The translations under genes were made by a program, and so were the position numbers. Of a stretch of 64,000 nt of DNA, positions 17,479-50,337 are shown piece by piece. The notes under the pieces were generated by a model. It searched no databases. It saw nothing but the letters and a program-made list of their open reading frames with translations, and was not told where the DNA came from. Position 1 is the stretch's first letter. Every line of letters begins with the position of its first letter. The stretch lies in the sequence record PV053165, one strand, 5' to 3'. The stretch comes from Escherichia phage PBM-3.

Positions 17479-20400
17479 TTGAACAGGAAACATGCTATGT
17501 CAACATTTGACCGTCTGGCAGGTTTCGCAGACAGCATCACTAATGCTAAGCAAGTCGATGTCTCTACTGCAACCTCTCAGAAGCAAGCTGCACAAGGGCA
17601 AAGCCCTTTCCAATTAACCCCAGAGAATGCTTACAATCTCCAAACTGGTCGTGTAGGTAATCTTGGAATCGGTGCATTCGAACCAGGTTCACTTCAGGCA
17701 GATTTCACTCAAGCCTCCCCATTAGAAATTCTTAATAAATACGGTAATGAGCAAGGTCTACAGATTCTTAATAGCCGAGCTAATGCTGCTGATGTTGTAC
17801 GTCAGGACTTATCTAAGCAACGTACTAACGCAGAAGCATTTGGTGATACTCTTTCTGGTGTTGGTCTTGGTGTTGCTAATACCCTTGGGGGCATTGCTGC
17901 TCTTGGTACGGGTTTGGTCAATGATAATGCCGGGGCATCCATTGCTTCCGGGATGGATTGGCTGAATGAAGGGGTACACAATCTACAGTCTGACGCACTG
18001 AATGCTACCCGTAAGGTTGTTCAGAATCAGAACCAGATTTCTGCACAAAAGAACCAGAAACTCTACGAAGAAGACATTAAAAATGGAGAGAGCAGTTTGG
18101 TTGCCTCTCTGTCTCGTATTGGTCGTGATGCTTTTGATTCTGTTGCTAATACGCTTGATAATGGTATGGCTGCTACTGATGGGCTGAGTGAAGGTGTTGG
18201 TTCTCTCTTTACCGGTGGTCCATTAATTCGTGGTGTATCTGCACTCGGTAAAGTAATGGTAGGTGGTGATAAAGCTGTTAAGGGTATTACCTTAGCTGCT
18301 GAGTTAGGTTCACGTCCTGCACAGGTTGCATTGTCTGCTGGTCGTGTTGCTGCACCTGCTATTGCAATTGGTGGTATGGAAGCTGGTGGTGCATACCAAC
18401 AGACTGCTTCCGAAATCATGAAGATGTCCCATCAAGAATTGGCAAGTAAGTCTCCTGTTTATCAACAGCATATCGCTGATGGTTTATCTCCTGATGAAGC
18501 ACGTCGCCAAACTGCATCTGAAACGGGTATCATTGCTGCTGGCTTAACTGCTCCGGTTGCTGCTGCTACTGGTCCTCTGGTATCCAAATTTGAACTTAAC
18601 CCACTTAAGGTAGGTTCGCTGGCTGGTGCTGGTTCTAACATGCTACGTGAAACAGTAGAAGAAGGTATTCAGTCTGGTACAAGTCAGTTTGCACAGAACA
18701 AGGCAATTCAGGGTAATGTAGATGCTAAGCGTGATTTGCTTAAAGGTGTCGGTGAGCAAGCAGGTCTTGGTGCACTCTACGGCTTCGGTAGTGCTGGTGT
18801 TGCTCAGGCTCCAGGTACAACTGTTAAAGCTGTTGGTGCTTCTGCTGGGCCTGCTTTACGTACTACTCTGGCTGGTGCTTCTCTGGTTGGTAGTGCATTA
18901 GCAAAAGCTGCCTCTCCTATTACTAACATCCTGGTTCAGCGTGGCGAAGAAGTTGCTAAGCGTAATGAGCAAGCATCCCCTGTATCAGATGCTACGGTTA
19001 ATGCTGCTGCACAAGAAGCTACTGCTCAAGCAGAACAAGCACAAGCAACTGTACAGGAAGCAGTAGATGCAATGGACATTTCTCCTGAAGAGAAAGCTGC
19101 TGCTACTCAGTATGCTGCTGACTTAACTCAGGCAATGAAGTTTGACCCAGTAGAACTGGAGCAAGCTAGTCCTACAATCCGTGAAGCTGTTTCTGGTTCC
19201 ACTAACCGTGTGGAAGCTATTCAGAAGATGGCAGACCTGGTTAATACTACTGAAGACCCTAACGTTCAAATGGAAGCTGCAATCCAGATGTATGACAACA
19301 TCATGTCTATGGATAGCTTCATTAACCGTGATCCTGGTGCTTTAGCTAATCTGGAACAGGGTTCTCCTGCTGCTAATATTGTTGACCAGTTCTCCGGCCT
19401 GATGGCTAACGTTCAGAATACACCAAAGGTACTTCGTGCATTCCGTGCCATCCATTCTATGATTCAGGAACAGGCTGAAGCAGGTAAACTGAAAGCTACC
19501 GAAGAAGCTAACCAAGCCCAAGCAAACAACATTGCTATGGCTGCTGATATGTCTCCAGAAGTACTGGATGCAGACTCAGTGAACATGGTTCTGAAACATG
19601 CAAGTGAAGGTAAGATTACACTGGGGAATCGTCAGCGTGCTGCCCTGCAATCTGCTGCTGCTCTATTGCAAGGAGCACGAGAATTTGACGCTAAAGCAGA
19701 AGAACTAGGCTTACGTCCTCAAGACATTGTTAGTAAACAGATTAAAACCGACGAGTCTCGTTCTAATGAAGGTCAGTACTCTGCGTTGCAACATGCTAAA
19801 CGCATTCGTTCTGCGTACAACTCTGGTAACTTCGATTTGGCTTCCGCTTACCTCGACGACTTTATGAAGTTCGCCCAGCACATGCAGAATAAGGTCGGAG
19901 CGTTGAATGAGCATCTGATTTCTGGGAATGCGGATAAGAATAAGTCTGTCCATTATCAGGCTCTTACTCCCTCCCGTGAATGGGTACGTAGTCGTACTGG
20001 TCTTGGTGTCAATCCGTATGATACCAAGTCGGTTAAGTTTGCCCAGCAAGTAGGACTGGAGGCCAAAACCGTAGCTGATATTGCTAACGCACTTGCTACG
20101 GCTTACCCGGAGCTTAATGTTTCTCATGTGAAGGTTACTCCATTAGATTCACGTCTGGACAAGCCTGCTGCCCAGGTAGTTAAAGAGTTCCGTCAAGGTG
20201 GTCTTGATGCCACTCAGTCTCAACAGACCAATGAACCAGTGAATCAGGTTGATGAAACTCCTGCACCAGCGCAAGAGACTACTACTACTACTGTACAGCC
20301 TAAAGCTAAACCAGTGGTAGAAAATAAGACTGTTCCTGTTAAAGAGGCTAGTTCAAAAGCAGAAGAAGTCTCTACTACTAAGTCTGAAACAGTAGATGCT

Positions 20401-23400
20401 ACCCTCACCAATGAGGATACCACTCAAAAAGTAGCTGAAACTAAAACGGAAATGGAAACAGTTTTCCCTGTCTATAACAATGACAAGACACCGAACCAGT
20501 TCCTGAAATCATTTACCCTGCCGGAAGAACCTAAGTCTCGCACCATTGGTTCTGAATCCCCTTTGACTGATATTAAGCAAGCACTGTCTTCTACTGCACG
20601 CTTTGAAGCATTCACTCAAAAAGAAAATAACGCTCTCACAAGTGATGTGATTAAGCGTTATCAGGACTTAATGGGCTTTGGTGAAACTCTGAAGACTACT
20701 CTGTCTGATCGTCTGGCTAAGTTTCTTGCTAATAAGAACGTTGGTAAACGCTTTGCAGAAGGCACAGAGGCTAACCGTTGGGTAGGTGGTAAGTTACTTA
20801 ATATCGTAGAGAAAGACGGAGACACCTTTAAGTTCAATGACCAGTTGTTAGAGACTGCTGTACTTGCTGGTCTGCAATGGCGACTGACTGCTACACAGAA
20901 TGCTGCTGTTAAAGACATGAAAGATGTAGCTGCTATTACTGGAGTAGAAGCATCCTTGTTACCTGAAGGTATCCTGGCTGAATTTGAGAATGCTCAGACT
21001 CTGGTTGAAGCTACTAACTCACTGGCTCAAAAGATTGAATCTTACTGGGGATTGAATCGTAATCCTAATGCACCACTGGGTTATACCAAAGGTATTCCAA
21101 TGGCAATGGCTACAGAGATTCTGTCTTCTCTCATTGAGATGGGTGAAGTTAAAGAGTCTATGCTTGATGTGTCTGAGATTGACCCAGACTCTAATAAGAC
21201 CGTCGGTCTGTATACCATTGAGAAGCTGGATGATAACGATGCCATTAACAAGTTCCCTACTGCTATCGAGGAAGCTGTTCTCGTAGAACCAGAAGAGAAA
21301 ATGTACTTTGGTGATGATATTCCTTCCGTGGCTCAAACTCAGTTACGTAACCCTGCTGTTAAGAATACCCCAGAGCAGAAAGCTGCTCTTAAAGCAGAAC
21401 AGGCTACCGAGTTCCGTGTACACATGCCGATGGTTAACTTCTATGAAGCATTAGGTCGTGACAACATTCTGGAACTGATGGGTGCTGGTACTCTTAATCC
21501 TGAACTGCTGAACGTGAACACTGCTAAGTCACTGGAGGGTAAAAACCTGTCAGTGTCTATGGCATATGATTCCCTGTTCGGTGTAATCAACCAGTTACAG
21601 GAACAGGAGAATGGTCTGGATACGCCTATTCACTATGGTTACAACATGACCCGTGTAGGTCGTATGCAGATGTTAGGTAAGAACAACCCACAATCCAGTA
21701 AACTGGTTCGTGAAGCAATTCTGCCAACCTTCTCTACTATTGACTTGAGTAATGAAAACAGCCAAACATTCTCTGACTTCCAGCTAGGACTGGCTCAGGC
21801 ATTGGGTATCAAGGTACATAATATGTCCCGTGAAGCTATGTCTGAAAAGCTGACCAAAGCTCTGGAAGGTAATCTGAAACCTGCTGTTGATATGATGGTT
21901 GAGTTTGATAAGTCTGGCCACTTACCAGCTGATGCAGTAGATATTCTGAAGACTTCTTTGGGTGGCGATAAATCATTCGTAGCTCTCATGGCTCTTATGG
22001 AATATGCCCGTTACCTGAACAGTGATGACCGTGCCAACTTTAATACCCCACTGTACGTTGAAGCCGATGGTGTAACCAACGGACCAATCAACGCAATGAT
22101 ATTAATGACAGGTGGTAAGTTCACTTCAGACTGGATTAAGAATACTGCTAAAGGTGGTCTGTTCTTCGGTAAAGCTGGTAAGACTATGAATGAGCATCGT
22201 TCACAGGATGACAGTGTTGACCTGTATGAAGCATCTACCAATGGTCTGCAACAAGCACTTAATGAGTTACGTACTACTTACCGTAACAACGTTCCGGTTA
22301 TGAACCAAATGAATCATCTTCAGAAGTTAATGGACCTGTTTATTAAAGACTTTAACCTGAATGAAGACGGTACTCTGGACCTAAAACGTGGTATCGCTAA
22401 AAACCCACTGACCATTACCATCTATGGTTCAGGTGCTCGTGGTATTGCTGGCAAGATGGTTAGTGCAATTACTGATACCATCTATGAACGCTTCAGTGAT
22501 GTTCTGCAAGCTCGTGCTGCTGACCCTAGTATTTCCCCAGCTATGGCAATGTTTGGTAAGGAGGCTGCGTCTGAGGCTGATGCTCAGGCTATGCTGGATA
22601 CTTTCCTTACTTCTATGGAAGCACTGACTGGTAATGTTCCAGTTATGCGTAAAGGTGAATTGTCTATTCAACAGGTAGAAGGTGCTCTGACTGGTAAGTT
22701 AGACCCTCAGAAGTTTACCGTATCGGGTAATGCCCTGAAGAACTTACAAGAGAACATGCTTCACCTGTTCGTTGAACCAATGCGTACTGGTATCCGGAAT
22801 ACTGTTGGGGAAGGTCTGATGCATTCTACTGAGAACTTGCAGAAGGCTACCCAGATTCAGTCTTTGGTTCTACAAGACATGTTCCAACAAGCAGTACAGG
22901 CTAAGCTGGCAGAAAAAGAAAAAGACCCAACCTGGAAGAAGGGTGATTTCTTAACACAGAAAGAACTGAATGAAATTCAGGAATCATTGTCTCCACTGGC
23001 TCCAATGATTGAGACTGGTTCACAGACTTTCTATATTGCTGGTAGTGAGAATACTGATGTTGCTAACCAGGTACTGGCTACCAACTTAGATGACCGTATG
23101 CGTGTGCCAATGAGCATCTATGCTCCTTCTCAGGCAGGCGTTGCAGGTATTCCATTTATGACCATTGGCACTGGTGATGGCATGATGATGCAGACCCTTT
23201 CTACTATGAAAGGTGCTCCGAAGAATACCCTGAAAATCTTTGATGGTATGAACATTGGTATCGACAACATCACTGATGCAAGTCGTAAAGCTAACGAGGC
23301 TGTATACACTTCCTGGCAGGGTAACCCTATCAAGAATGTTTATGAGTCTTTTACTAAGTTCATGAAGAACGTAGACTTCAGCAAACTATCTGATGAAACC

Positions 23401-26400
23401 AAACAGGCTATCGCTAAATCTGCTCTGGAATATGACCAGCGTGAAGGTGCTACCGATGACCTGTTACGTGTTGGTGCTGAACAGATTGAACGTAACCTGC
23501 GTAATATTGCTCTGGGTGTAGATATTCGTCACAAAGTAATGAACCAGGTACAGACTACTGTTGACCAGATGGCTGCTGTTGGTGCTCCTTATGTGAACAA
23601 CGGTAAAATCTCTCTGGAAGGTCTGACCGTAGACCAACAAGTAGCTAAGCTAAATGAACTGTTCGATGCTGAATTAAACAAACGTCGTGATGCAGTACGT
23701 GCTGCTAAAGTAGAACCAGTGAAAGAAGTGCCAGCAATGGAACAGGTTGGTCGTGTACTGAAGTCTGGTGTACGCCTACTGTCTAATACTGCTATCTCTA
23801 AGCTGGCTAAAGAGATGTCTCCGGAACAGCAAGCAGTACTGAAAGAAGTACAGAAATCCCTTGCTGCTAAAGATTATAAGGTTGTTTACGGTACACCTTC
23901 CCAACTGGATGCTTATGCTATTGAGAAGAATATTACTCGCCCAGCACCAGAAGATATTGAAGCTGCTGAAGCTGGTAATGCGTATGGTTGGACTAACTTT
24001 GAAGATAAGACCATCTACTTAGTTACCCCTTCCTTAGAGACTCTGGTTCATGAATTGGTGCATGCTTCTACTTTTGAATCTGTACTGGCTCACTATGAGG
24101 GTACTCCTAATGAAGCGGTCCAGAACATTGAAGACCTGATGAACCAGTTCCGTGCTCTGGATGTTAAGGATGAATCCCCGGCAGTTCGGGAAGCATATGC
24201 AGATGCTCTTAATACTATTAACGGTCATCTATCTAATGGCTTCATTGAGCCAGCAATGGCTAAAGCTGCTGCACTGAATGAGTACATGGCATGGGGTTTA
24301 ACTAACCGTGAACTGATTAGTAAGCAGAAGAAAACCACTGCACTGAAGACTATGGTTCAGGCTGTATATGAAGCAATCAAGCGTCTGGTATTTGGGCGTA
24401 AGAAAGCACCAGCTAATGCAGATGATATGTTCTCTGGCTTACTGTTTAACTCGTCCGTAGTTATGCGTGGGCAAGCTCCTACTGCTGCTGTAGCCAAAGA
24501 TACTACTCTGTTCCATAACAAAACGTATGGTGACAATACTCGTCTGGAAGAGCTAGGGAAAACCTTCGATAAACTGATTACTGACTACATTGGTTCTGAA
24601 CCAGTACAGCAAGTAATTCGTAAAGGTAAGTTCTCTGATGCAGTGGTTAATGCGACTAAAGTAACTCGTGATGTTCAGGCTCATGGCTTCACTATGAATA
24701 TGCAGGAACAACGTCTCTTTACTAACATTGTTGCTGCACTGGCTACTGAAGCTGCTATTAATCCTGCTGCTCTGGCTCGTGCACAGGAATACTACACACA
24801 TGTTACTAAGAACCTGACCGTTGAGTCATTCATGGCTGACCCAGATAGTACTAACCCTGCTGACCGTTACTATGCACAGCAGAAGTTCGATACCATCATG
24901 GGTGCTAACAACATTGAGTTTGATGCACAAGGCCGTTCTTCCTTACTGCCTACCTTTGTTGGTCTGGCAATGGTAAGTGAAGAAGTGCGTAAAGTACTGG
25001 CTGACATTCCTGTTATGAAAGTAGACAAGAAATCTGGCAATACCGCTGATGCAATGCTGACTAACATCGGTACTGCTGCAATGGCTAGTCTGAATGCTCG
25101 TGTAGCAGGAGATACTAAAGCTACCAACGTACAGGAAGGTATGGATGCACTGGCTCAGACAATCATGCAGACGAGTCTCAATGCGCAGTCCTTCTATGAT
25201 TCCATTGCTACTCCTAGTGGTAATGCTATCGACCGTGCTAACCAGTATCTGGTGGATTCTATTGATGTACTGTCTACCCGTGCTTTAGAGGGTGCTCGTG
25301 AAGTTGCAGCTAATACCAAGAACCCGTTGGTTAAAGGTGCTGCTCATGCTGCACAACTAATAGCTGCTATTGCTACAGAGAAAAATGGTGCAATCGTAGC
25401 TGAGGGTGTTATGGCTGCAATGAACCAGGGTAAGGTATGGCAACCTTTCCATGACCTGGTTAATGACTTAACTGGTCGTACTAAGAGCAATGCTTCTGTA
25501 TATGATTTGATTAAAGCAGTGCGTGCACAGGTACAGGCTGACCGTCAGCAGTTCCGTGAACATTTGCCTACCACTATTGCATCTAAGTTCAGCCGTAAGC
25601 TTACTAATGATGAGTGGAAAGCAATGCATACCGGTATGGGTAAAACCGACTTAGCTGTTCTGCGTGACACTATGTCTCTGGGTGAAATTCGTGACTTGCT
25701 GACTGACCAAAAGATTGTTGACCGTGAAGTGAATAAGCTGGAAGCAGATTTGCAGAAACAAGCAGGACGTAACTGGCCTTTGATTAGCCGTAAATCTAAG
25801 CAACTGGCTCAGTACATGATTAATGGCACAGTTGGTAATAACTTGCTGCGTAATGCTACTGCAATCTCTCGTATGCTGGGTGAACGACAGGCTGCACGTT
25901 CTACTGTAGATGTAGCTCAACTGGATAAACTGATTACTCTGTATGCACTGGAAGCAATGAGTAAGACTGACCGTGAGATGTTATCTTCACTGGCTCAGAC
26001 AGAGATTGAAGGCATGGACTTCGCTACTTCTTATCTGGTTGGTCAGCGTAAAGATGAAATGGCTAAAGCCAAATCTGATACTCGTGCAACTCTGAACCAG
26101 TACAAAGGGTATATTCCTGGTGAGACTAAACAGGGTGTTAACTTGATTGTTGCTGAAGATAGTCAGTTTGCTGATTTGATTGAGAAGTCCTATGTACGTC
26201 TGGGTACTTATCAGGGTAGCTCTGCTAATCGTGGTCCAGCACGTAGCTACTACTTTGCACCGGTACAGGCACAGGCTCCATTCTCGCAAGGTATCTTACA
26301 GAACGTTCGCAATACTGCTGGTGGTGTAGACCTTGGTACAGGCTTTACGATGGGTACAATGGTAGCTGGTCGTATCACTGACAAGCCTTCTGTAGACCGT

Positions 26401-27852
26401 ATCACTAAAGCACTGGCTCGCGGTGAACGTGGTAATGAACCACTGCTGCCTGTATATGATGATAAAGGCAATGTGGTTGCTTATGAGCAATCTATTGACC
26501 CTAACATGCTGAAGCACATTGAGGGTGAGAACCATCTCGCTCGTGCAATCGGTGTATGGCGTGGTCGTCAGGTAGAGGAAGCTAAGGCTCAGCGTTTTAA
26601 CGATATGCTGATTGAGAACCTGCATAGCATGTATGAAAACGACATTAAAATGTCTGCCTCTAACAAGTCACAGTACGTTAACCTTCTTGGTTCTAAACTG
26701 GACCCAGTAACTGCTGATGCCCTTAAGCTGATGAACAGTGAAACTCGTCAGAAAGCAGAAAGTCTGTTTGGTCCTGGTGAGTTGTGGGTACGTCGTGACA
26801 TGCTGAATGATGCACTGGGCTATCGTGCAGCTTCCGTAGGTGATGCCTGGTCTGGCAATTCTCGTTGGTCACCAGAAACACTGGATACCTTCAAGAAAGC
26901 TATGTTGGGTGTATTCGGCAACCGTGCTTATAAGTATGTAATGGGTGGTGAGAACCTGGTTCAAAACTTAGTTAAAGAAGCTAAGACTCTGATTGTAGTT
27001 AAATCAGTAGTTGTTCCTGCTGTTAACTTCCTGGCTAACCTTTACCAGATGGTTGGTCGTGGTGTACCTGTTAAGAACATTGCTAAGAGCATTCCACAGA
27101 AGACTGCTGAGATTAACCAGTACCTGAAATCTCGTCTGCGTCAGGTAGATGCAGAAGCAGAATTACGTGCAGCTACTAACCCGAACCAGATTCGTAAGCT
27201 TAAGGCTGAAATTCAGTCCATCACTGATAGTCATAAGCGTATGAGTATCTGGCCTCTGTTAGAAGCTGGTGAGTTTTCTTCAATTGCAGATGCTGGTATT
27301 GGACGAGATGACATCCTGATTACTGAAGGTAAACTTCACGAATACATGGATAAACTGGCTGATAAGTTACCTAAGTCTGTACGTAATGCTGGACGTTATG
27401 CCCTTATCACCAAGGATACTGCTTTATTCCAGGGTATCCAGAAGACGGTTGAGTACTCTGACTTTATTGCTAAAGCAATCATCTATGATGATTTGACTCA
27501 GCGTAAAGGTAAGACTCGTGAAGAAGCACTTGGACGTGTAACGGAAGAGTTCATTAACTATGACCGTCTGCCTGGTCGCTTCCGTGGGTATATGGAAAGT
27601 GTTGGTCTTATGTGGTTCTATAATTTTAAGATTCGTTCTGCAAAAATTGCAGTATCCATGATTCGTAACAACCCGGTACACGCAGCTATGGCTATGTTGG
27701 CTCCAACTCCTACCATGTTTGGTAATGTTGGTTTACCTATTCAGGACAACATCTTCAGTATTGCTGCACAAGGCAATCTCGGTTACTCCTGGGGCTTCGG
27801 TCAGGGACTTCGTGCCCATAACCTTAACCCTTGGCTCAATCTAGCTAACTAA
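17479..27852 (+). CDS. Virion-encapsidated RNA polymerase (giant, 3457 aa)
   Basis: Single ~10.4 kb ORF. Central region has single-subunit RNAP motifs: PLYVEADGVTNG (motif A-like), RGIAKNPLTITIYGSG (exact Rx3Kx7YG motif B), KIFDGMNIG (motif C-like). Size and position match N4-type vRNAP. Confidence 0.8.
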   Translation: MNRKHAMSTFDRLAGFADSITNAKQVDVSTATSQKQAAQGQSPFQLTPENAYNLQTGRVGNLGIGAFEPGSLQADFTQASPLEILNKYGNEQGLQILNSRANAADVVRQDLSKQRTNAEAFGDTLSGVGLGVANTLGGIAALGTGLVNDNAGASIASGMDWLNEGVHNLQSDALNATRKVVQNQNQISAQKNQKLYEEDIKNGESSLVASLSRIGRDAFDSVANTLDNGMAATDGLSEGVGSLFTGGPLIRGVSALGKVMVGGDKAVKGITLAAELGSRPAQVALSAGRVAAPAIAIGGMEAGGAYQQTASEIMKMSHQELASKSPVYQQHIADGLSPDEARRQTASETGIIAAGLTAPVAAATGPLVSKFELNPLKVGSLAGAGSNMLRETVEEGIQSGTSQFAQNKAIQGNVDAKRDLLKGVGEQAGLGALYGFGSAGVAQAPGTTVKAVGASAGPALRTTLAGASLVGSALAKAASPITNILVQRGEEVAKRNEQASPVSDATVNAAAQEATAQAEQAQATVQEAVDAMDISPEEKAAATQYAADLTQAMKFDPVELEQASPTIREAVSGSTNRVEAIQKMADLVNTTEDPNVQMEAAIQMYDNIMSMDSFINRDPGALANLEQGSPAANIVDQFSGLMANVQNTPKVLRAFRAIHSMIQEQAEAGKLKATEEANQAQANNIAMAADMSPEVLDADSVNMVLKHASEGKITLGNRQRAALQSAAALLQGAREFDAKAEELGLRPQDIVSKQIKTDESRSNEGQYSALQHAKRIRSAYNSGNFDLASAYLDDFMKFAQHMQNKVGALNEHLISGNADKNKSVHYQALTPSREWVRSRTGLGVNPYDTKSVKFAQQVGLEAKTVADIANALATAYPELNVSHVKVTPLDSRLDKPAAQVVKEFRQGGLDATQSQQTNEPVNQVDETPAPAQETTTTTVQPKAKPVVENKTVPVKEASSKAEEVSTTKSETVDATLTNEDTTQKVAETKTEMETVFPVYNNDKTPNQFLKSFTLPEEPKSRTIGSESPLTDIKQALSSTARFEAFTQKENNALTSDVIKRYQDLMGFGETLKTTLSDRLAKFLANKNVGKRFAEGTEANRWVGGKLLNIVEKDGDTFKFNDQLLETAVLAGLQWRLTATQNAAVKDMKDVAAITGVEASLLPEGILAEFENAQTLVEATNSLAQKIESYWGLNRNPNAPLGYTKGIPMAMATEILSSLIEMGEVKESMLDVSEIDPDSNKTVGLYTIEKLDDNDAINKFPTAIEEAVLVEPEEKMYFGDDIPSVAQTQLRNPAVKNTPEQKAALKAEQATEFRVHMPMVNFYEALGRDNILELMGAGTLNPELLNVNTAKSLEGKNLSVSMAYDSLFGVINQLQEQENGLDTPIHYGYNMTRVGRMQMLGKNNPQSSKLVREAILPTFSTIDLSNENSQTFSDFQLGLAQALGIKVHNMSREAMSEKLTKALEGNLKPAVDMMVEFDKSGHLPADAVDILKTSLGGDKSFVALMALMEYARYLNSDDRANFNTPLYVEADGVTNGPINAMILMTGGKFTSDWIKNTAKGGLFFGKAGKTMNEHRSQDDSVDLYEASTNGLQQALNELRTTYRNNVPVMNQMNHLQKLMDLFIKDFNLNEDGTLDLKRGIAKNPLTITIYGSGARGIAGKMVSAITDTIYERFSDVLQARAADPSISPAMAMFGKEAASEADAQAMLDTFLTSMEALTGNVPVMRKGELSIQQVEGALTGKLDPQKFTVSGNALKNLQENMLHLFVEPMRTGIRNTVGEGLMHSTENLQKATQIQSLVLQDMFQQAVQAKLAEKEKDPTWKKGDFLTQKELNEIQESLSPLAPMIETGSQTFYIAGSENTDVANQVLATNLDDRMRVPMSIYAPSQAGVAGIPFMTIGTGDGMMMQTLSTMKGAPKNTLKIFDGMNIGIDNITDASRKANEAVYTSWQGNPIKNVYESFTKFMKNVDFSKLSDETKQAIAKSALEYDQREGATDDLLRVGAEQIERNLRNIALGVDIRHKVMNQVQTTVDQMAAVGAPYVNNGKISLEGLTVDQQVAKLNELFDAELNKRRDAVRAAKVEPVKEVPAMEQVGRVLKSGVRLLSNTAISKLAKEMSPEQQAVLKEVQKSLAAKDYKVVYGTPSQLDAYAIEKNITRPAPEDIEAAEAGNAYGWTNFEDKTIYLVTPSLETLVHELVHASTFESVLAHYEGTPNEAVQNIEDLMNQFRALDVKDESPAVREAYADALNTINGHLSNGFIEPAMAKAAALNEYMAWGLTNRELISKQKKTTALKTMVQAVYEAIKRLVFGRKKAPANADDMFSGLLFNSSVVMRGQAPTAAVAKDTTLFHNKTYGDNTRLEELGKTFDKLITDYIGSEPVQQVIRKGKFSDAVVNATKVTRDVQAHGFTMNMQEQRLFTNIVAALATEAAINPAALARAQEYYTHVTKNLTVESFMADPDSTNPADRYYAQQKFDTIMGANNIEFDAQGRSSLLPTFVGLAMVSEEVRKVLADIPVMKVDKKSGNTADAMLTNIGTAAMASLNARVAGDTKATNVQEGMDALAQTIMQTSLNAQSFYDSIATPSGNAIDRANQYLVDSIDVLSTRALEGAREVAANTKNPLVKGAAHAAQLIAAIATEKNGAIVAEGVMAAMNQGKVWQPFHDLVNDLTGRTKSNASVYDLIKAVRAQVQADRQQFREHLPTTIASKFSRKLTNDEWKAMHTGMGKTDLAVLRDTMSLGEIRDLLTDQKIVDREVNKLEADLQKQAGRNWPLISRKSKQLAQYMINGTVGNNLLRNATAISRMLGERQAARSTVDVAQLDKLITLYALEAMSKTDREMLSSLAQTEIEGMDFATSYLVGQRKDEMAKAKSDTRATLNQYKGYIPGETKQGVNLIVAEDSQFADLIEKSYVRLGTYQGSSANRGPARSYYFAPVQAQAPFSQGILQNVRNTAGGVDLGTGFTMGTMVAGRITDKPSVDRITKALARGERGNEPLLPVYDDKGNVVAYEQSIDPNMLKHIEGENHLARAIGVWRGRQVEEAKAQRFNDMLIENLHSMYENDIKMSASNKSQYVNLLGSKLDPVTADALKLMNSETRQKAESLFGPGELWVRRDMLNDALGYRAASVGDAWSGNSRWSPETLDTFKKAMLGVFGNRAYKYVMGGENLVQNLVKEAKTLIVVKSVVVPAVNFLANLYQMVGRGVPVKNIAKSIPQKTAEINQYLKSRLRQVDAEAELRAATNPNQIRKLKAEIQSITDSHKRMSIWPLLEAGEFSSIADAGIGRDDILITEGKLHEYMDKLADKLPKSVRNAGRYALITKDTALFQGIQKTVEYSDFIAKAIIYDDLTQRKGKTREEALGRVTEEFINYDRLPGRFRGYMESVGLMWFYNFKIRSAKIAVSMIRNNPVHAAMAMLAPTPTMFGNVGLPIQDNIFSIAAQGNLGYSWGFGQGLRAHNLNPWLNLAN

Positions 27853-28901: not shown

Positions 28902-29058
28902 AGAGTGGTTTGAGTTTGTACTTAAACATGACTGCGTTGTTATAGGCTACGCTACCTGCAAACACCAAAGACTTGCGTCCTCGATTATCCGTTACCTCAT
29001 AGGCATACGGGGTTGAGATTAGGTCAATCATATTGATTATCCAATTATTAATACTCAA
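28873..29058 (-). CDS. Hypothetical small protein
   Basis: 61-aa ORF overlapping the downstream gene start. Confidence 0.3.
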   Translation of the reverse strand: MSINNWIINMIDLISTPYAYEVTDNRGRKSLVFAGSVAYNNAVMFKYKLKPLYEANNGNSK

Positions 29059-29069
29059 ATAAAAAAGTC

Positions 29070-29098
29070 CCCCAGAGTGACGGCTCCAGGGGACTTAG
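29070..29098 (-). terminator. Terminator-like hairpin downstream of the tRNA cluster
   Basis: On the - strand: AAGTCCCC...GGGGGACTT stem followed by TTTTTTATTT. Confidence 0.45.
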
Positions 29099-29340
29099 TA
29101 CTATTTACCCATAGCTGGGAGGCTTTTGGTTCTTACCACGAAGACAGTCCACGCTGACCAGGCTTGGGATTGATAGTCCCGTTCCTGTGGTAATTACTCA
29201 GGCTAGGATTTAAGGAGTTCCTATTCTCCAGCGAAATTCCCGTCGAAGGGAATAACAATACAATAGCAGCCACTGGACTGTCTTACCAGTGTTGTCTTTA
29301 GAGTGCGATGCAATCAGGACTATGTTACTGCTAAATGGGT

Positions 29341-29413
29341 GTCCACTACTGGATTTGAACCAGTGACTTTCCGATTATTAGTCGGTTGCTTTCCCAGTCT
29401 AAGCTAAGCGGAC
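29341..29413 (-). tRNA. tRNA gene (isotype uncertain; apparent anticodon AAT)
   Basis: Reverse complement folds as a cloverleaf: 7-bp acceptor GTCCGCT/AGTGGAC, D-stem GCTT/AAGC, T-arm ACTGG-TTCAAAT-CCAGT, anticodon stem CCGA/TCGG with loop CTAATAA. Confidence 0.6.
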
Positions 29414-29419
29414 ATAATA

Positions 29420-29495
29420 TGGTTACCCGGACAGGATTCGAACCTGCGTCCTAGTTGGTTTACTAGTGGGGCTTTACCACTAAGCCTACCGGGTA
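29420..29495 (-). tRNA. tRNA gene with encoded CCA and non-canonical anticodon arm
   Basis: Reverse complement: acceptor TACCCGG/CCGGGTA, discriminator A plus CCA, D-stem GGCT/AGCC, T-arm GCAGG-TTCGAAT-CCTGT. The anticodon arm only pairs as CTAGT/ACTAG with a 6-nt (or 8-nt) loop. Confidence 0.6.
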
Positions 29496-29941
29496 TTAAT
29501 AGGTGAGTCATGCCAGACTCTAACTGGCTCCTTCTTCGCAATCCTTACATACCCCTACATAATTATTGCGTTAAGCTTTTTTGTTTAAGTTTAAGTGAAG
29601 GCGTTCTTGCTGACTCATAATTGGGTTGGGCGTTTGACGAATGACTAGTTCGTTACTACCCGTTTGCCATAAGTACCTGGCGACTTTGGTTTGAGGTGGG
29701 AGTCCGAGTCCTGTACAGCCTTACCGTTCACACATTGGCAGCGTATCTAGAATTGCACTTCCGGCAACTGGATTTAACTGTTACACCTCAAATATGGTAG
29801 GGGCGTCCAGAAGTCTCATCTGGTACTTACGCCGTCGTATGGTTACGACTTACCCCCATAATTCTTCCAATTTAGAGTAGCACTGTCACGGTGGGTGCTT
29901 TAAATGCCGGGAAACATTTAAATATACAATGCTACTTTGAA

Positions 29942-30017
29942 TTGGTTATCAGTGAAGGATTCGAACCTCCGGTTGGAGTCTATAGCTTACCGCAGCAGCC
30001 CTCCAATCTAGCGGTGT
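29942..30017 (-). tRNA. tRNA-like element (T-arm and acceptor 3' strand present; 5' half not foldable by hand)
   Basis: Reverse complement ends GGAGG-TTCGAAT-CCTTC-ACTGATA-A-CCA, but no matching 5' acceptor strand at canonical distance. The 5' boundary is uncertain. Confidence 0.3.
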
Positions 30018-30068
30018 CACACTTAGTCCAAACTTGAACATGTCAAGCCATCTCGTGCAACTGATAAT

Positions 30069-30134
30069 TGGTTCCGGCGTCTGGACTCGAACCAGAACAC
30101 TCATGCCGTGCACGACACTAGTACCTACACCGGA
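30069..30134 (-). tRNA. Short tRNA-like element (~66 nt; D-arm apparently missing)
   Basis: Reverse complement: acceptor TCCGGTG/CGCCGGA (one G-U), T-arm TCTGG-TTCGAGT-CCAGA, discriminator A, CCA encoded. Too short for a canonical cloverleaf. Confidence 0.3.
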
Positions 30135-30197
30135 ATTAATTGCCAGGGATTCCACCTGGCTCCATCTGTTTTTATAGTCACTCAGATATCGTCTGGA

Positions 30198-30280
30198 CTG
30201 TAGGCATGGGTGGGAATCGAACCCACAAACCATTCAGCACTGTAGCCTCACGCTCTACCTATTTGAGCTATCACATACCA
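30198..30280 (-). tRNA. tRNA-like element (T-arm GTGGG-TTCGATT-CCCAC; imperfect acceptor)
   Basis: T-arm and a GCTC/GAGC D-like hairpin are present on the - strand, but acceptor pairing is imperfect (6 of 7) and the spacing is non-canonical. Confidence 0.3.
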
Positions 30281-30540
30281 TTGATTAACTCCCCGTTTCT
30301 AATACATGGACGGGGACACTCCACGGTCGTTTGATAATCAGGACGACTCACTCCTGACTGACGCTTGGCTTATTAGGCTGCCATCAGAACAACATCATCG
30401 TTTGCATTTATGTTATTGGTTCGTTTCTAAAAAACCGCATAATCGCTTACGAAAACTATCAAAGAGTACACTAGCTCTGGGCCACGCTTGTGGACATCGG
30501 CCTACCTTCCACAGCTAATCAACTAATGCACTCACTGATA

Positions 30541-30876
30541 GCCCATAATAGGGGGGAGGGGACGAATCCTCCCTTTATACCCTATATTGCATGTAAGATC
30601 TAACAGTTCGATGTTGTAGGTAGCTAGGCTATCCGACATTTAACCCAGCCCATATAGGGGCTTATGTGATTAGAATGCTCAACATTGAGCGGTTAGTTTG
30701 ATAAGGGATCTGAAGCCTTATCCTAAAGATACTAACCTTTGGGATATAGCCTAAGATTCAGAAATGGCCCCTATAGGGAGAGGCCATTGATTAACCCGAA
30801 TGTTGCTTTACATTTGCTGTGATAACCAATTCTTAAAATAGTCTGTCTGACGGATGGGGGTCCACCCCTAGCGTCA
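30541..30876. repeat. Array of spaced GC-rich palindromes in an AT-rich non-coding region
   Basis: Related palindromic motifs GCCCATAATAGGGGGG (30541), AGCCCATATAGGGGCT (30647) and GGCCCCTATAGGGAGAGGCC (30766), ~107-118 bp apart, plus GGGGTCCACCCC (~30865). No ORF of 60 aa or more. Confidence 0.35.
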
Positions 30877-30959: not shown

Positions 30960-31130
30960 TTAACTACTCTTTTTTAATGCCTTTACTTCACCATCTTTAT
31001 ACCAAGCATATGGTATTAAGATTTTGCAACCTTCTGAATCAATGTGGAATGCTTTGTTCCCTTCAACAGGTTCTCCACCCACGAAAGAACTAACCTTTCC
31101 ATTGAGCCAGTGAATAGTAAATTTGTTCAT
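30960..31130 (-). CDS. Small hypothetical protein (56 aa, below the ORF-track cutoff)
   Basis: ATG at 31130 preceded by GAGG RBS; encodes MNKFTIHWLNGKVSSFVGGEPVEGNKAFHIDSEGCKILIPYAWYKDGEVKALKKSS. Confidence 0.35.
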   Translation of the reverse strand: MNKFTIHWLNGKVSSFVGGEPVEGNKAFHIDSEGCKILIPYAWYKDGEVKALKKSS

Positions 31131-49396: not shown

Positions 49397-50337
49397 TCAG
49401 TAATTGTCTCACCTGGGATTAACTTACGGAATTGGATAAAGTGAAGCAGGTTACCTGAGTACAGGTTCCCTTCTTTATCCATGGATGTAACACCTTGTTC
49501 CCATGTAACTGGGTTCATGTTATTCACGTACTTCTCACCAAGATTCATAGGTGTAGCTTGATGCTCTGTTGGGGAAGCATGAATAGGTTGGTTTTCCACT
49601 AACTTAGCAAATAAGCTAAGGTCTTCCTCAATAGTAGAAGGACGTCCTTCAAAGTTGTTATAAGAAGCACGGGCACAGCGTGCAGCACTTACTTTGAGAA
49701 GTAGCCCATGCACTTCTGCATCACTTGGTTCATCGCGTGTAATTCGATTACGTTTGCAGAAATTATAAGCCCCAACACGGTCAATATGAGCAATATAAGG
49801 CAGATGCCATTGCCCATACGGTAGTGCTCTTGGTGTACTTTCTTCATGTGCCTTACGCATTGCTTGAGCCAGTTCACGAATCTCTGGTTGTGCATCTTTG
49901 TGGTCACGCAGTCCATAGAAATTAGCCCAGCTAGTTGAAGTTACCACTACACGAATATGCGTGAATGGTTCCAGGATACGGTTAACAATCTGCTTATGTA
50001 CTTGTCCACGTCGTAGCTGTTCAGCATACACAGCAGCAGCAGATGCAGCGTTATCCCAGATAAACTTAGCATCTTCAATCTCAGCAGGAGTGAGTTCTTC
50101 ATCTGCTTGCATACCTTTCTGGTTCTTGCCCCAGTGACTTGGCATCACTGGTTCATTACGAACCTGTTCAATTAACTTAGATGTAGGAATAGCACGACTG
50201 CTTGAAGCATTACGGTTAAATACACGGTGGGTCATAAACTCACTGTGAATGAATCGGGGATAAACCAATTCAAAGGTAGTAATACGAGTTCCTGTTTCTG
50301 GGTGAACGGAATCTGCAATGACAGTTGCCTTAATCAT
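49393..50337 (-). CDS. thyX: Flavin-dependent thymidylate synthase (ThyX)
   Basis: ThyX-type signature HR-x7-S-x-R in EFMTHRVFNRNASSSRAIP; ~310 aa. Confidence 0.7.
   Translation of the reverse strand: MIKATVIADSVHPETGTRITTFELVYPRFIHSEFMTHRVFNRNASSSRAIPTSKLIEQVRNEPVMPSHWGKNQKGMQADEELTPAEIEDAKFIWDNAASAAAVYAEQLRRGQVHKQIVNRILEPFTHIRVVVTSTSWANFYGLRDHKDAQPEIRELAQAMRKAHEESTPRALPYGQWHLPYIAHIDRVGAYNFCKRNRITRDEPSDAEVHGLLLKVSAARCARASYNNFEGRPSTIEEDLSLFAKLVENQPIHASPTEHQATPMNLGEKYVNNMNPVTWEQGVTSMDKEGNLYSGNLLHFIQFRKLIPGETITE

Follow-up and report, generated by a model that had tools for sequence, protein, structure and literature searches.

tmRNA is regarded as one RNA that has to unite a chargeable tRNA-like domain (TLD) with a message. 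In tRNAs more generally, RNase P, 3'-end processing enzymes, and the CCA-adding enzyme recognize the acceptor/T-arm minihelix together with the D-arm. Small RNAs that are not tRNAs also occur beside phage tRNA genes: the stable RNAs C and D of phage T4 (species 1 and 2) are co-transcribed with the T4 tRNA cluster, and neither is known to carry a tag frame. Mycobacteriophage DS6A encodes a TLD-only tmRNA fragment for which inhibition of the host tmRNA has been reported (PMC4131195, PMC11915505). Phage tRNAs with altered anticodon loops, in turn, evade tRNA-targeting defenses (PMC10264068, PMC11555353, PMC11464382).

We analyzed a 64,000-nucleotide stretch of Escherichia phage PBM-3 (PV053165; hereafter the window), a G7C-like (Gamaleyavirus) phage of the N4 type whose sequence matches Escherichia phage PBM-2 at 100%. 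A non-coding stretch of ~1.5 kb runs on the minus strand from ~30573 to 29057 and has an intrinsic terminator at its 3' end; between 29058 and 30960 the record annotates no CDS and only tRNA features. The explanation we favor, with a probability of roughly 55%, is that this stretch constitutes a single protein-free RNA operon, a mosaic of modules that includes one decoder, five tRNA-like RNAs, and a tmRNA-like tag module. The RNA modules recur, differently combined, in unrelated enterobacterial phages. The features are as follows, with the basis of each assignment in parentheses where applicable.

29057-29096, minus strand: intrinsic terminator with a 13-bp stem and T-run, placed at 29096-29065 within this interval, closing the putative RNA operon
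29340-29413, minus strand: el1, canonical tRNA-Ile(AAT) (ARAGORN default and Rfam)
29420-29495, minus strand: el2, tRNA-like, with a 6-nt anticodon loop and ACCA (ARAGORN and Rfam)
29697-29789, minus strand: module Z, conserved non-coding segment (conservation)
29795-29857, minus strand: elX, small tRNA-like unit with an ACCA 3' end (hand and alifold folds)
29943-30066, minus strand: el3, 124-nt tRNA-like RNA with ACCA (covariation among 8 homologs)
30069-30135, minus strand: el4, 67-nt D-armless mini tRNA-like unit with ACCA (identity with N4, compensatory changes in KP8)
30136-30199, minus strand: module C, conserved spacer with a hairpin (identity with relatives)
30202-30279, minus strand: el5, tRNA-like with a replaced anticodon arm (relaxed ARAGORN, homolog covariation)
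30290-30325, minus strand: PK3, H-type pseudoknot 3' of the tag
30326-30359, minus strand: PK2, H-type pseudoknot 3' of the tag
30358-30387, minus strand: hairpin with the tag stops in its loop
30370-30405, minus strand: tag reading frame (sub-threshold Rfam match, 129 homologs)
30406-30456, minus strand: PK1 region, pseudoknot directly 5' of the resume codon
30456-30541, minus strand: H0 helix region, in which 30527-30541 pairs with 30456-30470 (covariation)
30554-30573, minus strand: conserved hairpin upstream of H0 (conservation)

Several of these features are neither tRNA-like nor part of the tag module. Module Z contains 89 nt that are 100% identical to phage N4 and ~96% identical in Gamaleyaviruses; neither a stable fold (z = +1.67) nor an Rfam match was found for it. 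Module C, with its hairpin GCCAGG-UGGAAUC-CCUGGC, precedes el4 in every case and is 93-100% identical in KKP3715, Bas96, ShWW44, N4, and KP8, with its 5' part (~30125-30200) matching further phage families (9NA, DS8, and Klebsiella phages). The hairpin at the upstream end (GGGAGG-AUUCGUCC-CCUCCC) is kept in N4-like relatives and in Kuravirus WFI101126. Canonical tRNAs occupy the same locus in N4 and KP8.

The first-pass annotation had described five minus-strand elements with T-arms here, and all five are present; elX and the tmRNA-like module directly upstream of el5 were not on its list. The T-arm motif GGTTCRANTCC occurs six times in the 64-kb window, compared to 0.19 expected, a count reached by none of 100 shuffles. 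Five occurrences fall at 29351-30223 on the minus strand, a clustering ~30-fold above chance, and the sixth, at 1208, is coding sequence inside an 892-amino-acid ORF. At ARAGORN default settings and Rfam gathering thresholds, el1 and el2 alone pass as members of the tRNA family (RF00005). Relaxed ARAGORN alone picked up el3, el4, and el5, and neither these three nor elX matched RF00005 even at E ≤ 10. Software folding therefore did not render all five elements canonical, one of two outcomes that the earlier reading had named as evidence against itself. The other outcome, that only the first two are tRNA-like and the rest are chance T-loops, agrees with the default calls in its first half and is contradicted in its second by the clustering, conservation, and covariation. 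Rfam matches of el1 and el2 to YrlA and Plastid-ycf2 were discarded as artefacts of tRNA-likeness.

A defined anticodon in a 7-nt loop with U33 is found only in el1, in agreement with the earlier proposal of a single canonical cloverleaf reading AAT. It is called by default ARAGORN and scores 61.6 bits in Rfam; its loop (CUAAUAA) is identical in five lineages, its fold is more stable than shuffles (z = -2.36), and compensatory changes affect the anticodon stem (CCGA/TCGG to CTGA/TCAG) and the acceptor. It looks to be the sole array member able to decode, as tRNA-Ile(AAU). The second element, el2, combines normal acceptor, D-, and T-arms with a 5-bp anticodon stem and a 6-nt loop (AAACCA). ARAGORN assigns it a two-base "anticodon (ac)," Rfam passes over the anticodon arm in its 40.7-bit match, and its minimum free energy fold is a cloverleaf with the 6-nt loop (z = -2.30). 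Of the features first ascribed to el2, the encoded CCA and the 6-nt loop hold, and the alternative 8-nt loop appears in neither the ARAGORN nor the MFE structure. A frameshift-suppressor-like tRNA is not supported: the 6-nt loop lacks U33 and is retained in KKP3715 and ST4 (AAACTA), and the 8-nt alternative likewise has no U33. The encoded CCA of el2 is not conserved.

The remaining units depart further from the cloverleaf. elX consists of an acceptor-like GGGGG/CCCC(U) stem and two hairpins, the second with 5 bp and a 7-nt loop; it is 91-94% conserved in KKP3715, Bas96, and ST4 (z = -2.09), and the second hairpin shows a CU/AG to CC/GG change among relatives. As first noted, no 5' acceptor partner for el3 is found at the canonical distance; instead, TATCAGT farther upstream pairs with ACTGATA in a 7-bp acceptor, making an element of 124 nt that retains a T-arm and ACCA, holds an inserted hairpin in the D-region, and has an "anticodon" stem of 6+4 bp with a 9-nt loop. 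In eight homologs, 99.6% of el3 cells are paired (0/500 shuffles), five pairs are changed on both sides, three of them in the acceptor, and slipping the register lowers pairing to 27-48%. The description of el4 as ~66 nt long with CCA and no D-arm was essentially accurate: its 67 nt comprise an 8-bp acceptor (UUCCGGUG/CGCCGGAA), a 10-nt linker, a short hairpin with a 4-nt loop, a T-arm, and ACCA (z = -2.24). A 74-nt segment covering el4 is 100% identical in phage N4, a different genus, and KP8 carries compensatory changes in the hairpin and the T-stem (UCUGG/CCAGA to GUUGG/CCAAC). The imperfect acceptor reported for el5 corresponds to a conserved T.C mismatch in an 8-9-bp stem. Its D- and T-arms are canonical, and its anticodon arm is replaced by a stem with a GA/GA motif and a variable 5-6-nt loop. 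The el5 family spans N4-like phages, Jiaodavirus, Roskildevirus, and Alcyoneusvirus, with a divergent copy in Kevin; among homologs in KPN6, IT22, and K64-1, the acceptor and T-stem covary and the D-arm is invariant. Relaxed ARAGORN labels el5 as tRNA-Cys(aca), and the PBM-2 GenBank record as tRNA-Cys. Across the tRNA-like families, annotation labels are inconsistent, ranging over Cys, Gln, Thr, Val, Ala, Xle, OTHER, and nothing.

Conservation together with compensatory changes shows that el3, el4, and el5 are not the decaying pseudo-tRNAs that had been considered initially. Judged by sequence comparison, el2-el5 and elX are conserved tRNA-shaped RNAs, and the initial term "tRNA-derived regulatory elements" is broadly right in calling them tRNA-derived. 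All five retain the acceptor/T-arm "top half," often with a D-arm, and have non-decoding anticodon regions; four of them (el2, el3, el4, and elX) encode A-CCA. What they are for can be read in two ways. Under the operon explanation, they would act mainly as processing handles. Alternatively, they could serve as anti-defense decoys of, or substitutes for, the tRNAs attacked by host nucleases such as PrrC, retron effectors, and PARIS, a role suggested by the published defense-evading phage tRNAs, the preserved tRNA shape, the CCA on four units, and the spread of elements by horizontal exchange among phages sharing hosts. The published cases, however, are decoding tRNAs with 7-nt loops, whereas in this array the usual targets of such nucleases, the anticodon loops, are either missing or vary freely (TACAG, CCTGG, CATAG, or TTCGG in el5 homologs). 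We regard the decoy role as unlikely.

Directly upstream of el5 lies the tmRNA-like message module (30290-30456), in which PK1 and an AUAAAU spacer are followed by a GCA resume codon, an ssrA-type tag of 10 codons, UAAUAA within a hairpin, and then PK2 and PK3. The frame reads GCA AAC GAU GAU GUU GUU CUG AUG GCA GCC UAA UAA, encoding ANDDVVLMAA followed by two stops. An in-frame UAG is located eight codons 5' of GCA, with no ATG, GTG, or TTG between them. As in tmRNA, the frame thus opens on Ala with no start codon and ends in a hydrophobic/Ala C-terminus before the stop, with PK1 directly preceding the resume codon and further pseudoknots following the tag. The match to the permuted tmRNA model RF04321 reaches 32.7 bits (E = 2.5e-4), below the gathering score of 47. 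In PK1, GUUUU/GAAAC is crossed by UUAUG/CAUAA. This pseudoknot is backed by conservation and by two stem classes (UUAUG/CAUAA versus CUUUG/CAAAG), although in the N4-like lineage the register of stem 2 is ambiguous. Among 93 unique homologs, helix parsing found 9, 5, 9, and 17 distinct complementary strand pairs for PK2a, PK2b, PK3a, and PK3b, respectively; the MAFFT alignment was not structure-consistent and was left out of these pair counts. Abutting PK1, the H0 helix encloses a 56-nt structured insert and covaries among KKP3715, Bas96, ST4, ShWW44, and KP8, and its region folds with z = -4.14 (0/200 shuffles). In most other phages, the tag module is bordered by a helix module related to H0.

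The module is widespread. Unannotated copies are present in phages of the N4-like, P1-like, Vi1-like, and sipho types and in 657 of 5,426 complete Escherichia coli genomes (12%), where the copies among the matches listed are annotated as "none" or "hypothetical protein." The same tag frame is found in Buchananvirus, Agtrevirus, P1-like phages (tag ANDDLMMVAA), Miltonvirus, and Roufvirus. In many phages the module lies within a tRNA cluster. A T-arm is nearby in 18 of 64 contexts, compared to 1.3 expected; the other 46 have none within ~300-450 nt, and roughly half of all contexts lack tRNAs altogether. An obligatory T-arm partner in the vicinity was rejected on these counts. A search of open-access text retrieved no tag peptide, "phage-encoded tmRNA," or tmRNA-like RNA for these phages.

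Each of the 129 tag-frame homologs has 10 codons, and together they specify 17 peptide variants. The 30 distinct tag sequences, every one 10 codons plus a stop, show 545 synonymous codon differences in the tag frame versus 60 and 210 in the other two frames, both of which contain stops. Three to four different Ala codons are used at each of the last two positions, and Kuttervirus encodes the initial A-N as GCT AAT, a synonymous change at codons 1-2. The constant length and synonymous excess would not be expected of a purely structural RNA, and this comparative pattern indicates that the tag frame is under protein-level selection. The same observations weigh against an untranslated module that mimics the tmRNA body and titrates the SmpB tail, S1, or RNase R, or that persists as a relic. 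The cis absence of a tRNA-like domain would suit such a sponge, and DS6A provides a precedent for fragmentary phage tmRNA mimics (PMC4131195, PMC11915505); given the coding signal, we consider it improbable.

Whether the tag module is itself a tmRNA hinges on the tRNA-like domain. A G3:U70 acceptor, T-arm, and 3' CCA are absent in cis from the window and from most homologs, default ARAGORN reports no tmRNA here or at five other loci, and the dedicated Rfam models stay below their gathering scores. With no recognizable tRNA-like domain, the module falls outside the tmRNA family. A search of the other 62 kb for a separate acceptor piece gave no tRNA- or tmRNA-like match at E ≤ 5. We rejected a permuted, two-piece tmRNA with H0 as P2 and the insert as TLD: T-arms, where present, adjoin the 3' strand of H0, which therefore behaves as an extended acceptor-like stem. 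In three loci (L038, L069, and L008), the upstream T-arm is only ~15-26 nt from PK1, and that strand pairs 5' of the insert. Circular permutation between promoter-type and prophage-type arrangements was set aside because many contigs have the helix module on both sides. Nor does a P2-like helix enclose the module: in the N4-likes the downstream strand is missing, and covariation is local. A G3:U70 minihelix in H0 was likewise discarded, the G.U alternating with A-U and being U.G or U-A in N4-likes. Duplex energies for base pairing with host tmRNA were inside the shuffled range, and recent capture of host ssrA was dismissed on an alignment score of 32 versus 25.8 ± 4.6 for shuffles, which is not significant.

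The module and el5 could in principle form one conventional, unpermuted tmRNA of ~287 nt (30488-30202). ARAGORN with -ps80 gives this as proposal #2, the 5' GCGUGG can be paired by hand with CCAUGC after the el5 T-arm with G.U at 3:70, and RF00023 matches that T-arm, at 15.5 bits versus a gathering score of 47. This pairing is rejected because it is not conserved: in Bas96 and KP8 the 5' strand is present, whereas the 3' elements differ and cannot pair with it. Moreover, el5 is self-contained, occurs in other phages without the tag module, and is not followed by CCA, and the strand before PK1 is already engaged in the covarying H0 helix. We find this architecture very hard to credit. Least probable of all is an ordinary tRNA cluster with two working genes and otherwise decaying pseudo-tRNAs or chance T-loops, which the default software calls and the el3 and el5 folds (no better than shuffled sequence, z = -0.17 and -0.67) would fit, but which the identity of el4 between genera, the compensatory pairs of el3, the covariation of el5 over four phage families, and the ~30-fold T-arm clustering all contradict.

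Under the favored operon explanation, host RNase P and 3' processing enzymes would cut the precursor at the tRNA-like units and thereby release stable small RNAs. In SmpB-dependent ribosome rescue, the tag module may offer an alternative template, such that stalled host or phage polypeptides would receive a phage-specified degron. More tentatively, and at clearly less than even odds, we propose that the module is a mobile phage RNA of a new class: a tmRNA "message cassette" that has no tRNA-like domain and either rewrites the degradation tag by hijacking the host SmpB/tmRNA rescue machinery in trans or supports pseudoknot-directed internal entry at GCA. Flanked by tRNA-like or hairpin processing handles, it would spread among unrelated phages, with el3, el4, and el5 as further undescribed RNA families. 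A conserved and evidently translated tag template without a tRNA-like domain would challenge the one-RNA view of tmRNA; if true, it would point either to a new route by which templates enter ribosome rescue or to a phage strategy for choosing the proteins degraded by the host during infection. The tRNA-like families, for their part, demonstrate that some members of phage "tRNA clusters" are conserved RNAs that do not decode.

Among known systems, phage tRNA clusters resemble the array in being clustered, co-oriented, and closely spaced, and el1 is a normal decoder of the kind they contain. They differ in that most array members cannot decode, having a 6-nt loop or stem-only or oversized anticodon regions, yet are conserved. 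RNAs C and D of T4 offer another parallel, as small stable non-tRNA RNAs of a phage tRNA operon that are matured by tRNA enzymes. The tag module most closely resembles tmRNA (ssrA; RF00023, permuted RF04321/RF01849-51), with which it shares a pseudoknot 5' of a start-codon-less frame opening on GCA, a double stop in a hairpin loop, and H-type pseudoknots downstream. AUA at positions -6 to -4 is common to the module and E. coli tmRNA, and the 10-residue module tags, AND...(L/M)x(A/V)A, resemble the E. coli tag ANDENYALAA. Unlike tmRNA, the module has no G3:U70 acceptor or 3' CCA, usually no nearby T-arm, and is phage-carried and flanked by the H0 hairpin module or tRNA-like units. Our comparison with known phage tmRNAs, which leaves out the 79 phage entries of the 2025 tmRNA database, identifies those of the Bxz1 group and Bacillus phage G as likewise phage-borne and tmRNA-related; they and DS6A infect mycobacteria or Bacillus, whereas the hosts here are enterobacteria. 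The DS6A RNA is matched by el4 in size and layout (67 nt; acceptor, linker, hairpin, T-arm, and ACCA), although C3-G70 in place of G3:U70 sets el4 outside that type. DS6A carries the TLD alone, and the tag module of the window is the complementary half, a message without a TLD.

The odd tRNA genes of this locus are conserved, non-decoding tRNA-like RNA families bordering a tmRNA-like tag module that is itself widespread and unannotated; the first-pass annotation had found something real and undersold it. The window matches the Gamaleyavirus Escherichia phage PBM-2 (a G7C-like, N4-type podovirus) at 100% identity. The flagged interval falls within a stretch free of annotated CDSs, bounded by the nearest minus-strand gene upstream, an ORF that ends at 30960, and by an intrinsic terminator. 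The only GenBank features in this stretch are tRNA-Ile, tRNA-OTHER, and tRNA-Cys.

29096-29065, minus strand: intrinsic terminator, 13-bp stem and T-run
29340-29413, minus strand: el1, tRNA-Ile, anticodon AAT, 61.6 bits
29420-29495, minus strand: el2, two-base anticodon in ARAGORN, equivalent to a 6-nt loop; Rfam 40.7 bits, obtained only with the anticodon arm skipped
29795-29857, minus strand: elX, sixth tRNA-like unit, ACCA end
30290-30456, minus strand: tag module, comprising PK1, resume codon, tag, stop hairpin, and two H-type pseudoknots
30456-30541, minus strand: H0 (helix with structured insert), N4-like version; covaries; fold z = -4.1

The 64 kb contain six copies of the T-arm motif GGTTCRANTCC versus 0.19 expected, and 0 of 100 shuffles contained as many. 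Five of them are clustered on the minus strand (29351-30223), and the sixth is coding sequence inside an 892-aa ORF. Two genes, el1 and el2, were called by default ARAGORN and at the Rfam gathering score. The remaining elements required relaxed ARAGORN, which rendered el3 as 'Ser' or as 'Thr' with an intron, el4 again with a 6-nt loop, and el5 as tRNA-Cys(aca). The hand-folded descriptions of the five elements were each accurate, and all five members of the proposed cluster stand; elX had been overlooked. Elsewhere in the window, no tRNA- or tmRNA-like match was found at E <= 5. GenBank records of related phages label the same elements inconsistently (tRNA-Cys, Thr, Val, Ala, Xle, OTHER, Pseudo-GCT) or leave them unlabelled. 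Outside the locus, a 3,457-aa ORF (17479-27852, plus strand) corresponds to a PBM-2 CDS labelled 'DNA polymerase'; in N4-like phages, a protein of ~3,500 aa is the virion RNA polymerase, so this label is probably wrong. A weak fluoride-riboswitch-like Rfam match at 49750-49823 (minus strand; 21.1 bits, short of the gathering score, 34; E = 0.2) is probably due to chance.

The suggestion that the deviant elements are decaying pseudo-tRNAs fails, as el3, el4, and el5 are conserved with compensatory or covarying changes in homologs. Across eight distinct homologs, 99.6% of cells in the el3 tRNA-like fold are paired, with acceptor strands 106 nt apart. Five pairs are altered on both sides, three of them in the acceptor (TATCAGT/ACTGATA, TACCAGT/ACTGGTA, TACTGGT/ACCAGTA); 0 of 500 shuffles reached the covariation score, and a slipped register reduced pairing to 27-48%. 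For the 67-nt, D-armless mini-tRNA el4, which ends in ACCA, identity to phage N4, a member of a different genus, is 100% over 74 nt, and Klebsiella phage KP8 has compensatory changes in the hairpin and T-stem. Homologs of el5 occur in a Jiaodavirus, a Roskildevirus, and a jumbo Alcyoneusvirus, with covarying acceptor and T-stems and an invariant D-arm; Serratia phage Kevin carries a more divergent copy. Its 'anticodon' pentamer is free (TACAG, CCTGG, CATAG, TTCGG) between conserved GA...GA flanks, which is why software calls el5 Cys in PBM-2 and Gln in KPN6. The el1 loop CUAAUAA is kept in five lineages with compensatory stem changes, and the 6-nt loop of el2 is kept in KKP3715 and ST4 and is therefore not a sequencing error. 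Fold z-scores are approximately -2.1 to -2.4 for el1, el2, el4, and elX; those of el3 and el5 are unremarkable, and the support for these two elements is comparative. These units are thus conserved, structured RNAs with one decoder among them. What the deviant members share is a retained acceptor/T-arm top half, often together with the D-arm, and the loss of a decoding anticodon loop. As a rival role, such tRNA-like RNAs could act as decoys against tRNA-targeting defenses.

N4-like phages carry the same modules in shuffled combinations, including module C (a conserved spacer 5' of el4) and module Z (a non-coding segment).

PBM-2: H0, tag, el5, C, el4, el3, ..., elX, Z, el2, el1
KKP3715 and Bas96: a different tRNA-like element in the el5 slot
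ST4 and KP8: el3 immediately after the tag module
N4: tag module absent; C with el4, module Z, and canonical tRNAs retained

ACCAAT(T) appears repeatedly at module junctions, e.g., at 30066-30072 and 29940-29946 (minus strand), and could be a scar of module-shuffling recombination or a processing site. Example junctions are el4-ACCAATT-el3-ACCAATTC and, in ST4, PK3-GGGGGACCAATT-el3. Module Z (29697-29789, minus strand; 93 nt, non-coding) is 100% identical over 89 nt in phage N4 and ~96% identical in Gamaleyaviruses; a stable fold is not predicted for it (z = +1.67), and it has no Rfam match. For the locus of Escherichia phage Bas96 (500-2500), the record places approximately ten short CDSs labelled 'hypothetical protein' over the homologous RNA operon, several of them on the other strand; these are probably over-calls on structured RNA. 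In Vi1-like phages (Ackermannviridae), the tag module is surrounded by a ~2-kb region nearly devoid of annotated genes (loci of Salmonella phage ST-W77, ~640-2980, and Shigella phage Ag3, ~530-2385) and dense with long hairpins and additional mini tRNA-like units that carry T-arms; one such unit has a C-CCA end and G.A at 3:70.

The tag module emerged from a permissive Rfam scan as a sub-threshold 'permuted tmRNA' match (30373-30475, minus strand; 32.7 bits, E = 2.5e-4). The sequence there, AUAAAU GCA AAC GAU GAU GUU GUU CUG AUG GCA GCC UAA UAA, encodes ANDDVVLMAA followed by two stops. The verified E. coli ssrA tag is ANDENYALAA, likewise followed by UAAUAA. BLAST located the segment in unrelated phages, where it nearly always lacks annotation: Buchananvirus, Agtrevirus, P1-like RCS47, Miltonvirus, and an Aeromonas Roufvirus. 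Their tags are ANDDVVLMAA, ANDDLMMVAA, ANDNAFLMAA, and ANEEMYLAVA. A gapped-pattern search of IMG/VR matched >120 contigs, which together with GenBank loci and the window gave 129 instances. The frame is 10 codons long in all 129, with 17 peptide variants and the consensus AN[DE][DEN]xx[LM]x[AV][AP]. Outside the search pattern, Kuttervirus ST-W77 encodes ANDSEVLMAA with synonymous first two codons (GCT AAT...). Among 30 distinct tag sequences, synonymous codon differences number 545 in frame; the two alternative frames give 60 and 210 and are interrupted by stops in 30/30 and 24/30 sequences. Ala at the last two positions is encoded by four and three different codons. These patterns show peptide-level selection on the frame. 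An in-frame UAG lies eight codons upstream of GCA, and no ATG, GTG, or TTG intervenes in the window sequence. Given the synonymous excess and this lack of a start codon, the frame looks translated, though not via ordinary initiation. The rival reading is a tmRNA mimic that is not translated.

The module is also found in bacterial genomes, with seven matches among species representatives (mostly Enterobacterales) and presence in 657 of 5,426 complete E. coli genomes (555 copies on plasmids, 150 on chromosomes). Among the matches listed, E. coli copies are annotated as 'none' or 'hypothetical protein', and carrier plasmids are roughly 90-120 kb, a size typical of P1-like phage-plasmids.

The tag module has no tRNA-like domain of its own. 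ARAGORN at default detected no tmRNA in the window locus or five other loci. Of 64 representative contexts, about half have no tRNA within -400 to +900 nt, none has a neighboring G3:U70 acceptor (the pair expected in tmRNA), and only 18 have a perfect T-arm within ~300-450 nt (1.3 expected), an enriched but not obligatory feature. A relaxed ARAGORN proposal joining the module to el5 with G3.U70 was rejected, since relatives keep the 5' strand and carry other 3' elements. Siphophages carry a conserved sigma-70 promoter (TTGACA, 17 nt, TAGATT) that puts the predicted RNA 5' end directly at PK1, and in P1-like elements a terminator hairpin adjoins PK1. Other contexts have H0, a conserved helix module, on one or both sides of the tag module (strands 5' ...GGTAAGRGCATTG... 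and 3' ...CAGTGCTCTTTCC...), with variable inserts that sometimes include a T-arm. Several interpretations of H0, as the P2 helix of a tmRNA or an alanine minihelix, were tested and rejected, and no special complementarity of the module to host tmRNA was found. Upstream of H0, the hairpin GGGAGG-AUUCGUCC-CCUCCC (30554-30573, minus strand), conserved in N4-like relatives and Kuravirus WFI101126, could be a promoter element, terminator element, or T-arm remnant. WFI101126 has a CDS downstream of H0 and its insert, and no tag module intervenes.

We favor a translated tag. The operon would be transcribed as one precursor, which host RNase P and enzymes acting on 3' ends would cut at the tRNA-like units in the manner of any tRNA operon; such cutting may release and stabilize the RNA pieces. 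The tag module would then serve as a template in ribosome rescue, appending a C-terminal degron chosen by the phage; the module might reach the ribosome through host SmpB/tmRNA in trans, an unrecognized partner, or pseudoknot-directed internal entry.

We found no description of the module or its tag in the open-access literature. The 2025 tmRNA database (79 phage entries) uses a pipeline built on ARAGORN and Rfam/Infernal, both of which miss these loci here. Known phage tmRNAs comprise mycobacteriophage genes, a Bacillus phage G gene, and a form in DS6A consisting only of the tRNA-like domain (PMC4131195, PMC11915505). Nucleotide similarity to E. coli ssrA is confined to GCAAACGA and TAATAACCTG; the overall alignment is not significant (score 32 versus 25.8 +/- 4.6), which rules out recent capture of host ssrA. 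Like E. coli tmRNA, the module has AUA at -6 to -4 of the resume codon. A 5' pseudoknot lies a few nucleotides before that codon (GUUUU/GAAAC crossed by CUUUG/CAAAG; UUAUG/CAUAA in N4-like phages), and the stop codons sit in a hairpin loop. All four stems of the two downstream H-type pseudoknots covary, with 9, 5, 9, and 17 distinct complementary strand pairs in 65 parsed unique sequences. Because it has no tRNA-like domain, the module falls outside tmRNA proper; its layout is that of the tmRNA body plan between the halves of that domain.
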